DNA of 32,062 nt from positions 1-32,062 of IMG/VR virus record IMGVR_UViG_3300032219_001111; one strand, written 5' to 3'. The notes beneath the pieces were generated by a model. The model was not told where the DNA came from and did no database searches. It worked only from the letters and a program-made list of their open reading frames with translations. Below, in pieces: positions 7,470 to 8,088 of this stretch. This stretch comes from a virus (Duplodnaviria; Caudoviricetes). The translations under genes and the position numbers were made by a program. The stretch's first letter is position 1. Each line of letters begins with the position of its first letter.

Positions 7470-7645
7470 GGTGGACGCACCTAGCCTATCCCAGGTGCGC
7501 CTTCAGCTGTATCCCTCTACGGAGCCACAGCACCCGACAGCCTTTTCGTTCCAACGGTGCTCTCTTCGCCGCCGTTTGCGAGTTCTCAGAACTATCCCAC
7601 AGTCTCGCTTATCCCCCAGCTCCTGCGGTTACCCCACAAGCTGAG
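7470..7645 (-). ncRNA. Multi-stem structured RNA (or ssDNA structure) of unknown class
   Basis: Consecutive stems on the - strand: CUCAGCU/AGCUGGG, GCGAG/CUCGC enclosing two small hairpins, AACGG/CCGUU, GCUGUG/UACAGC, and the 11-bp GGCGCACCUGG/CUAGGUGCGUC. Non-Watson-Crick pairs within stems are G-U on - and would be A-C on +. Confidence 0.65.
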
Positions 7646-7655
7646 CGGTCTGGCC

Positions 7656-7798
7656 AAAGAAAAACCCCGACACTTTGGTAGAGGCTTAGGCCCTTGGCGT
7701 TGGGCAACTCTAGGCGCAGATAGGATGCGATTTGAGTCACGCAAAGCCCCTACCAAAATATCGGGGTTCCTATCGTCGCCCGGGAGCCACCCCAGACG
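7656..7798 (-). ncRNA. Structured 5' leader: small hairpin, 25-bp helix and U-tract (attenuator-like)
   Basis: Arms 7768-7744 and 7687-7663 pair over 25 uninterrupted bp with three G-U wobbles and end in GGGGUUUUUCUUU. A 5' hairpin spans 7798-7777. Confidence 0.75.
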
Positions 7799-7803
7799 CG
7801 TGC

Positions 7804-7832
7804 ATCGTATGTCCAAATAAATCCGTTGTCAA
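7804..7832 (-). promoter_or_regulatory. Sigma70-type promoter for the leader and replication operon
   Basis: TTGACA (7832-7827), 17-bp spacer, TACGAT (7809-7804). The predicted start near 7797 coincides with the first hairpin. Confidence 0.78.
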
Positions 7833-7938
7833 CAGTCCGGTTTACTAATCAGGCTGCAGCTCGGGTTCGCGACCCCTTACTTCACCCTTTCGTCCTCGGG
7901 AAAACCCCACGCAGCCCGCTACACCGGAAGGTCACGCT

Positions 7939-8030
7939 GTCCTTTACCTAACGCCCAATCAACGGATGAGGTGCCCATTGACTCCAAATAGGGCGATAGG
8001 TTTCGGCCATTGAGGCCTCATCAGAAGGAC
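7939..8030 (-). ncRNA. Type I hammerhead self-cleaving ribozyme
   Basis: GUCCUU-CUGAUGA-GGCC(UCAAU)GGCC-GAAA-CCUA...UAGG-UA^AAGGAC. All core nucleotides are present, with a 6-bp stem I, 4-bp stem II and extended stem III. Predicted cleavage is after GUA, between 7945 and 7944. Confidence 0.93.
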
Positions 8031-8035
8031 TGTCT

Positions 8036-8058
8036 GTACTTTAACATTGTTAAAGTAC
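8036..8058. promoter_or_regulatory. Perfect 23-bp palindrome, putative operator or parS-like site
   Basis: GTACTTTAACA-T-TGTTAAAGTAC, intergenic; each strand contains an extended -10-like TGnTAAAGT. Confidence 0.7.
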
Positions 8059-8060
8059 TC

Positions 8061-8088
8061 AAAAAGACCCCCTCACGAAGAGGGGGCT
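8061..8088 (-). terminator. Rho-independent terminator of the recombination operon
   Basis: CCCCCUC-UUCGU-GAGGGGG followed by UCUUUUU, just after the stop at 8107. Confidence 0.85.

Follow-up and report, generated by a model that had tools for sequence, protein, structure and literature searches.

The locus in the phage record

The window, by which we mean the whole stretch of DNA analysed, is a whole linear virus record of 32,062 nt. Its genes include those for an endolysin, virion proteins, RusA, a PD-(D/E)XK exonuclease, ERF, a ParB-like protein, a helicase and a primase, and no tRNA was found in the window. A protein of 2,937 residues (21682-12869, minus strand) contains ART-PolyVal and LPD38 domains and is probably an injected polyvalent virion protein. 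The unit described here, a hammerhead ribozyme followed by a structured RNA, is placed in non-coding DNA, with a DUF968/HNH-like ORF (8421-8107) on one side and the replication genes on the other (Table 1). A hairpin with U-tract sets the unit apart from the DUF968/HNH-like operon. The adjacent inverted repeat, which in L062 is a hybrid of the window half and the half found in L001, is likely an operator. A weak extended -10-like element (8046-8038) overlaps this repeat, ends 7 nt before stem I of the hammerhead and may serve as promoter; it was not called in a sigma-70 scan of the window, and the window unit's own promoter site scores 6 of 12.

On the other side of the unit, the next promoter starts 4 nt past the RNA (7944-7836), and no terminator was found after this RNA in the window. 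The neighbouring RNA that follows has a long hairpin (z = -6.0) and a pseudoknot in which complementarity persists between strands of differing sequence, as seen in the window, in L001/L018, in L062 and in L128. Situated upstream of both Betaproteobacteria-1 and the replication genes, it is possibly a replication-control or attenuator RNA. Betaproteobacteria-1 is the sole Rfam match in the window and stands in this phage upstream of the genes for the ParB-like protein, helicase and primase. It also occurs in L001, in L018 and in the record of L029, which is the one positive among five further unit-bearing phage records searched. We found no relevant paper on this family in phages in the literature, and its name suggests a betaproteobacterial host. 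Protein searches for cultured relatives returned distant phages only, with no host indicated.

Table 1. Features of the hammerhead locus and its neighbours (positions in the window)
Feature	Positions	Strand	Remarks
Intrinsic-terminator-like hairpin and U-tract	8061..8087	-	3' of the upstream DUF968/HNH-like ORF
Perfect 11-bp inverted repeat, 1-nt spacer	8036..8058	.	symmetry kept with changed letters in L001
Type I hammerhead ribozyme	7939..8030	-	predicted cut between 7945 and 7944
Stem III of the hammerhead, 54 nt	7947..8000	-	variable region
Conserved, unannotated RNA motif predicted to be released (about 110 nt)	7836..7944	-	initial 6 nt also form the 3' strand of stem I in the hammerhead
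P1 helix around conserved loop ACCU-UCC-GGU-GUA (7932-7920)	7912..7939	-	like the COG2908 (RF02939) core, below threshold
Pseudoknot, 5' strand UCCGGU	7923..7928	-	
P2 short hairpin	7898..7908	-	
P3 arm, variable middle	7844..7895	-	base: loop-E-like GAAA (7891-7888) opposite RAGUA (here GAUUA, 7850-7846)
Hairpin at the tip of P3, loop G-UCGCGA-A with palindrome at 7872-7867	7863..7876	-	predicted kissing loop
Pseudoknot, 3' strand ACCGGA	7836..7841	-	
Sigma-70-like promoter TTGACA-17-TACGAT	7804..7832	-	serves the next RNA; neighbour, outside the unit
Neighbouring unannotated structured RNA	7656..7797	-	long hairpin, covarying pseudoknot 7774-7768/7725-7719, U-tract
Betaproteobacteria-1 RNA (RF02932), neighbour	7532..7647	-	92.6 bits

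The hammerhead ribozyme

The preliminary description had recognised a canonical type I hammerhead with a long stem III, and the parts that it named are all present on the minus strand at the positions it gave: stem I is formed by GUCCUU (8030-8025) and AAGGAC (7944-7939) and is followed by CUGAUGA (8024-8018), stem II (8017-8005) and GAAA (8004-8001), and the cleavage triplet is GUA (7947-7945). With the core criteria given in the methods of PMC3088659, the core is complete (C3 U4 G5 A6 N7 G8 A9, G12 A13 A14 A15.1, U16.1 H17), all three stems are paired next to it, and the open ends lie in stem I, as in type I. When 7939-8030 is folded, the minimum free energy structure is that of a hammerhead (z = -3.74), and none of 200 shuffles was as good. 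It had also been argued that the core and three helices are unlikely by chance, and a type I descriptor indeed has a single match in the window and none in 300 dinucleotide shuffles, both strands included; a second hammerhead was not found. The canonical identity is thus borne out by anatomy, fold and the covariation in 33 related copies.

The Rfam search that had been proposed as a check gave a different result, with the window copy matching no hammerhead model at the gathering score or at E <= 10. The gathering score of RF00163 is a database threshold and not a biological requirement, and since it is passed by four relatives with a short stem III (L028, L033, L054, L070), we attribute the miss to the 54-nt stem III of the window copy. 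This stem (8000-7947) contains an 8-nt bulge and, in its distal helix, two G-U pairs. Its length is no defining feature: stem III varies from 8 to 73 nt among 33 relatives, and we regard the long form as incidental because L018, with flanks near-identical to the window, has a stem III of 8 nt. Stem III was also considered as an antisense guide and dismissed, as the window contains only scattered complements of 8-11 nt and none at a start site; this comparison was made without a shuffle control. Judged from its sequence, the ribozyme is a type I hammerhead by every feature testable here save the Rfam score.

Among the 33 copies, stems II and III covary. The four pairs of stem II hold throughout, the second position showing four pair types and the fourth three. 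Stem I barely covaries, with three compensatory cells in 33 copies; it was fixed in most of the hammerhead search patterns, and the sample therefore leans to one lineage. The cleavage triplet is GUC in 22 and GUA in 11 copies, and conserved residues comprise an A before stem I (32/33), an A after it (30/33) and a U that opens loop II (32/33). In L083, L086, L089, L116, L135 and L139, stem III measures 64-73 nt and contains a GAAA/AGUA loop-E-like motif, and the core GAAA is replaced by GUAA or GAUAA.

For the transcript from 8035 to 7830 that had been suggested for a cleavage assay, folding predicts a problem: stem I has a predicted probability of 0.07 in 8036-7830, compared with 0.63 when the RNA ends at 7836, because 8034-8027 pairs with 7838-7831. 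The longer construct would thus be predicted to misfold.

A conserved RNA starts at the predicted cleavage site

What the preliminary description overlooked is a conserved RNA that starts at the predicted cleavage site and is likely the reason for the ribozyme. The observations on this unit are the hammerhead anatomy, the fixed link to the downstream motif, the covariation of P1 and pseudoknot, and the conserved palindromy of one loop. The link was found from both sides. Scans for the hammerhead only gave 22 matches in a first round, from which nine with unpaired stem I were dropped as chance, while each of the remaining 13 is followed by the motif; a second round gave 20 matches, all with paired stem I and all followed by the motif. 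The distance from the cut to the ACCU of the motif is 11-16 nt in 33/33.

Five scans for the motif only returned 36, 4, 27, 47 and 23 rows, that is 137 that are mostly chance pattern matches, with 13, 1, 18, 8 and 2 members, respectively. Altogether 23 distinct contigs carry the RNA, and in 20 of these a hammerhead lies directly upstream. In the other contigs (L080, L102, L110) the RNA starts just past a stop codon and has no hammerhead, and so the hammerhead is not obligatory. In the hammerhead-less L080/L121, L102/L137 and L110, a second shared stretch with a weak GP20-b match comes next, and then a RepB-type primase gene.

Among these five scans, the one with 47 rows used the 3' half of the motif, and its eight members were all known already; the one with 23 rows and two members was a group B scan. 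Members were first chosen by eye, and a covariance model was then built from 19 of them. Training sequences and near-identical copies score at least 63 bits and six divergent non-training members 25-36 bits, whereas L058, L028, L046 and L014 reach 17-24 bits. As the best non-member also reaches 24 bits, clean separation by this model is limited to the main group. A scan of bacterial genomes yielded four matches with one member, L110 on a contig of 2 kb, and model R1 applied to 61 genomes around that of L110 found the same contig and no other (1/61). The unit is present once per record in the nine records searched. In blastn searches of the unit against a phage collection, no match was obtained for the window or L015, and L055 gave one chance match of 29 nt.

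Structure of the downstream RNA

The downstream RNA measures 110-184 nt across the units and has no Rfam match at threshold. In P1 the sequence varies and pairing is mostly kept (CGU/GCG, CAG/CUG, CUCAU/AUGAG, CACCGA/UCGGUG), with fewer than three pairs in 6 of 36 units in a strict register test; the loop ACCU-N3-GGU-GYR was fixed by the search patterns. In the pseudoknot, this loop pairs with the 3' end of the RNA; across 36 units the helix covaries at both of its variable positions, which are position 4 (C-G 26, U-A 8, U-G 2) and position 5 (C-G 21, G-C 8, U-A 4), and RNAalifold recovers its helix without guidance. At the base of P3, the main group shares GAAA opposite RAGUA, with AUUA in place of AGUA in the window; this internal loop looks loop-E-like.

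The invariant GGU can pair with a local or a distal ACC, and both pairings are possible in 36/36 units. A ligand-sensing switch, with the ligand controlling hammerhead cleavage or downstream expression through this choice, could exploit the two pairings; the COG2908 drawing in Rfam shows the local hairpin, and pairing that competes with stem I is predicted in long constructs. We give this idea little credence, as covariation is seen in the distal pairing only, the competitor of stem I comprises 4-8 bp and is absent in several relatives, the competing strand would be transcribed 100 nt after completion of the ribozyme, and the copies share no gene that might be regulated. Switching between stem I and a 3' GGAC was also considered as a conserved, general mechanism and was rejected, since this pairing is variable among relatives.

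Invariant unpaired residues together with a pseudoknot and a multi-stem junction are also what an undescribed class of self-cleaving or ligating ribozyme might display, which with the hammerhead would excise and possibly circularise an RNA. Self-cleaving ribozymes do cluster in bacteria (PMC6765202), and three copies of the motif dispense with the hammerhead. Nevertheless, the motif is longer than the 50-80 nt to be expected and matches no Rfam ribozyme model, the window is without a second hammerhead, and all ten motifs next to ribozymes that were tested in PMC10085705 showed no cleavage, so that we consider a second ribozyme improbable. The folds of group II introns, twister, pistol, hatchet, hairpin and HDV ribozymes were compared by description and by Rfam, and none fits.

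The palindromic loop at the tip of P3

At the tip of P3, the window has the self-complementary hexamer UCGCGA, in place of which the relatives have UCUAGA, UGUACA, AGUACU, GUGCAC, GCUAGC, ACGCGU, GGCGCC, UGGCCA, CCUAGG or UGAUCA. By a blind rule, a strict palindrome in a hairpin loop occurs in 27 of 36 units compared with 8.7 expected from shuffles and with 9/36 in a flank control; in L049 the match sits in a different hairpin. The nine units that miss comprise seven with UGAUCG, which is self-complementary only with G-U, as well as L033, whose UGAUCA falls outside the loop rule, and L046, which is without a palindrome. If units are clustered at 70% identity, 13 of 17 clusters have the palindrome (P about 1e-5), and with 60% single-linkage clustering, which merges six different palindromes in one cluster, it is 5 of 9 (P = 0.087). 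When loops were picked by hand, that is by eye and post hoc, the central tetramer is palindromic in 36 of 37, with eight different tetramers, and matching hairpins picked in this manner contain double changes that preserve the palindrome (UCGCGA/UCUAGA, UGUACA/AGUACU).

Bases that adjoin in a loop are unable to pair with each other in the same chain. In OLE and GOLLD, palindrome switching supports the intermolecular bridges that are seen by cryo-EM (PMC12286853). By its pattern of substitution, the P3-tip loop is predicted to be an intermolecular kissing loop that forms a homodimer.

As an alternative, the motif could serve the ribozyme alone, as a peripheral domain with a tertiary contact to loop II, or could act as a protein-binding palindrome at the DNA level. 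The fixed spacing to the cut would suit a peripheral domain, and no conserved loop II pseudoknot was seen among the related hammerheads, so that tertiary stabilisation could come from elsewhere. However, complete copies of the RNA exist without a hammerhead, eleven different strict palindromes cannot form one recognition site for a protein, and the G-U substitutions point to RNA. We think that either version is very improbable.

A resemblance of the loops to an anti-Shine-Dalgarno sequence, noticed in the window and in L090, was dropped, as these are two cases only. The 3' strand of stem III is near-palindromic in L014, L021, L028, L033 and L054-L065, and loop III of L015 contains a palindrome; the ribozymes with these features might pair as dimers too.

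Genomic contexts and proposed function

The surroundings of the unit vary: it precedes HicA-like and exonuclease genes or a terminase small subunit gene, follows DUF932 genes, or lies within tRNA arrays, in unrelated phages and with unrelated flanking genes. A hammerhead starts 0-9 nt past a tRNA in L049, L046, L015 and L017, and the next tRNA begins 3-8 nt past the pseudoknot in L015, L049, L124, L125 and L127; such close neighbours speak for a discrete unit. In 4/33 copies (L013, L016, L029, L057), a sigma-70-like site with a good score (9-10 of 12) lies upstream, its end 9-19 nt short of stem I. No co-occurring protein partner was identified among the 15 flanking proteins scanned, and the ParB-like gene was rejected as partner because the unit is present at only 1 of 12 related loci. 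Just 3' of the unit, L013, L029 and L070 have a short HicA-like ORF and then a PD-(D/E)XK exonuclease gene; the HicA-like ORF has a weak Pfam match in L070 only (E = 0.0098).

In L017, L029, L070, L113, L028 and L054, an ORF starts about 10-25 nt past the pseudoknot, as would be expected for a cis-acting 5' leader, in which cleavage and pseudoknot cap and stabilise a downstream mRNA or tRNA transcript or control its translation, and no free small RNA accumulates. The similar core of COG2908 is classed as cis-regulatory in Rfam, and phage hammerheads have been proposed to cut long transcripts into gene-length mRNAs (PMC3088659). A leader is nonetheless difficult to reconcile with the new promoter that follows the RNA in the window and in four close relatives, with the tRNA within 8 nt downstream in five copies and with downstream genes that are unrelated; also, a palindromic loop would be superfluous in a cap. 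We therefore regard the leader as unlikely.

The reading towards which we lean, with some confidence, is that of a free RNA: the hammerhead would cut at 7945/7944, and the released RNA, about 110 nt long and with a hydroxyl at its 5' end, would form a homodimer via the palindromic kissing loop and act in trans, likeliest as a protein decoy or scaffold. The hammerhead would be transcribed and would cut during transcription; synthesis of any competing strand would come about 100 nt after the ribozyme is finished. The RNA would thereby obtain the same 5'-OH end regardless of the upstream promoter, gene or tRNA. Within tRNA arrays, its 3' end may be generated when RNase P processes the tRNA that follows, and in the window by trimming to the pseudoknot, or transcription may read through to the U-tract (7664-7656). 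The pseudoknot would join both ends of the RNA, and the tip of P3 would link two copies. RNA decay can depend on a 5'-monophosphate, and the 5'-OH end may protect the RNA. These steps, from transcription and cleavage through 3' end formation and end protection to the dimer, we infer.

For the role of the RNA, we favour a stable molecule with two arms that serves a protein as decoy or scaffold, because there is no common neighbour gene and because the internal loop is of a protein-binding type, but this assignment is a tentative one. Equally tentative is a wider proposal, in which the unit represents an undescribed family of small phage RNA genes in unrelated phages, where every such gene brings a hammerhead as a portable module for 5' processing, and in which the pseudoknotted homodimer has an activity of its own, either as a bivalent trap that captures a protein of host defence or RNA decay or as a new class of ribozyme that needs the 5'-OH. 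If such a family exists, the changing palindrome would limit pairing to copies from the same phage.

Relation to described RNAs

By itself, the hammerhead is ordinary; new is the conserved unit of hammerhead and RNA with its palindrome-switching loop. With the type I hammerheads of phages and prophages (RF00163; PMC3088659), it has in common the full core, three stems, an open stem I, an NUH triplet and the intergenic position in a phage. It differs from the phage hammerheads of PMC3088659 in being tied to one downstream RNA and not to changing flanking genes, and in having no second ribozyme in the window; from RF00163 it differs in that the window copy with its long stem III misses the model.

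The downstream RNA shares with COG2908 (RF02939) the core ACCUUUCGGUGUAG hairpin within a closing helix, and weak matches occur in five loci, with 14.4 bits for the window and 25.8 for the best relative at a cut-off of 58.7. The 14-nt side hairpin of the model is absent from the downstream RNA, which, if compared with the Rfam model alone, runs 80-150 nt further and includes the pseudoknot, the arm with the loop-E-like base and the palindromic loop. A COG2908 RNA would be expected upstream of a COG2908 gene, of metallophosphoesterase type, but no Pfam match to such a gene was found among the 30 proteins of the window or the 15 flanking proteins scanned in relatives.

GOLLD and ROOL are encoded by phages, in many cases close to tRNA islands, and are, like OLE, structured RNAs with unassigned function (PMC12286853). 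OLE and GOLLD possess symmetric kissing loops that switch between palindromes, according to the same paper, and the loop of the downstream RNA switches in this manner too. Compared with GOLLD, ROOL and OLE, the downstream RNA is far smaller, has one palindromic loop and no Rfam match to these families, and possesses a dedicated 5' hammerhead. By the tests made here it is not a member of COG2908, GOLLD, ROOL or OLE, and shares the core hairpin with the first and likely the mode of assembly with the others.

In the dimerisation initiation site of HIV-1, purines flank a 6-nt palindrome within a hairpin loop. The P3 tip has the same layout, with GUGCAC in L016 and L090; the HIV-1 site is a retroviral genome signal, and homology with the phage RNA is not implied. 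Theta ribozymes cut at the 3' end of tRNAs. These small self-cleaving ribozymes, which lie next to phage tRNAs (PMC10879173), have an HDV-like fold, whereas the unit has a hammerhead core and no HDV-type Rfam match, and its cut falls 46-110 nt past the start of stem I and defines the 5' end of the next RNA.

In the parts of the literature covered, the pairing of a hammerhead with this downstream RNA is undescribed, although the candidate lists of PMC5737381 and PMC10690425 and the hammerhead cluster #1,533,398 of a preprint (10.64898/2026.10.21.760802) may hold the motif; six supplement files of PMC10690425 were searched for it and gave no match. The roles of self-cleaving ribozymes in bacteria and phages are largely elusive according to reviews (PMC6765202, PMC6155905). 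The hammerhead lineage described here has a fixed and identifiable substrate, a structured RNA and not an mRNA, and for this reason the role of a phage ribozyme becomes open to short experiments. If the hammerhead frees a self-pairing RNA, phage ribozymes would have a testable purpose, and the RNA would be a compact natural case of palindrome-driven multimerisation in phages that is small enough for structure work.

Two viral contigs that entered the scans as chance pattern matches have catalytic RNAs of other kinds. L027 contains three type II hammerheads within 3 kb (252-316, 2241-2309 and 2801-2868), and L024 carries a group I intron at 118-331.
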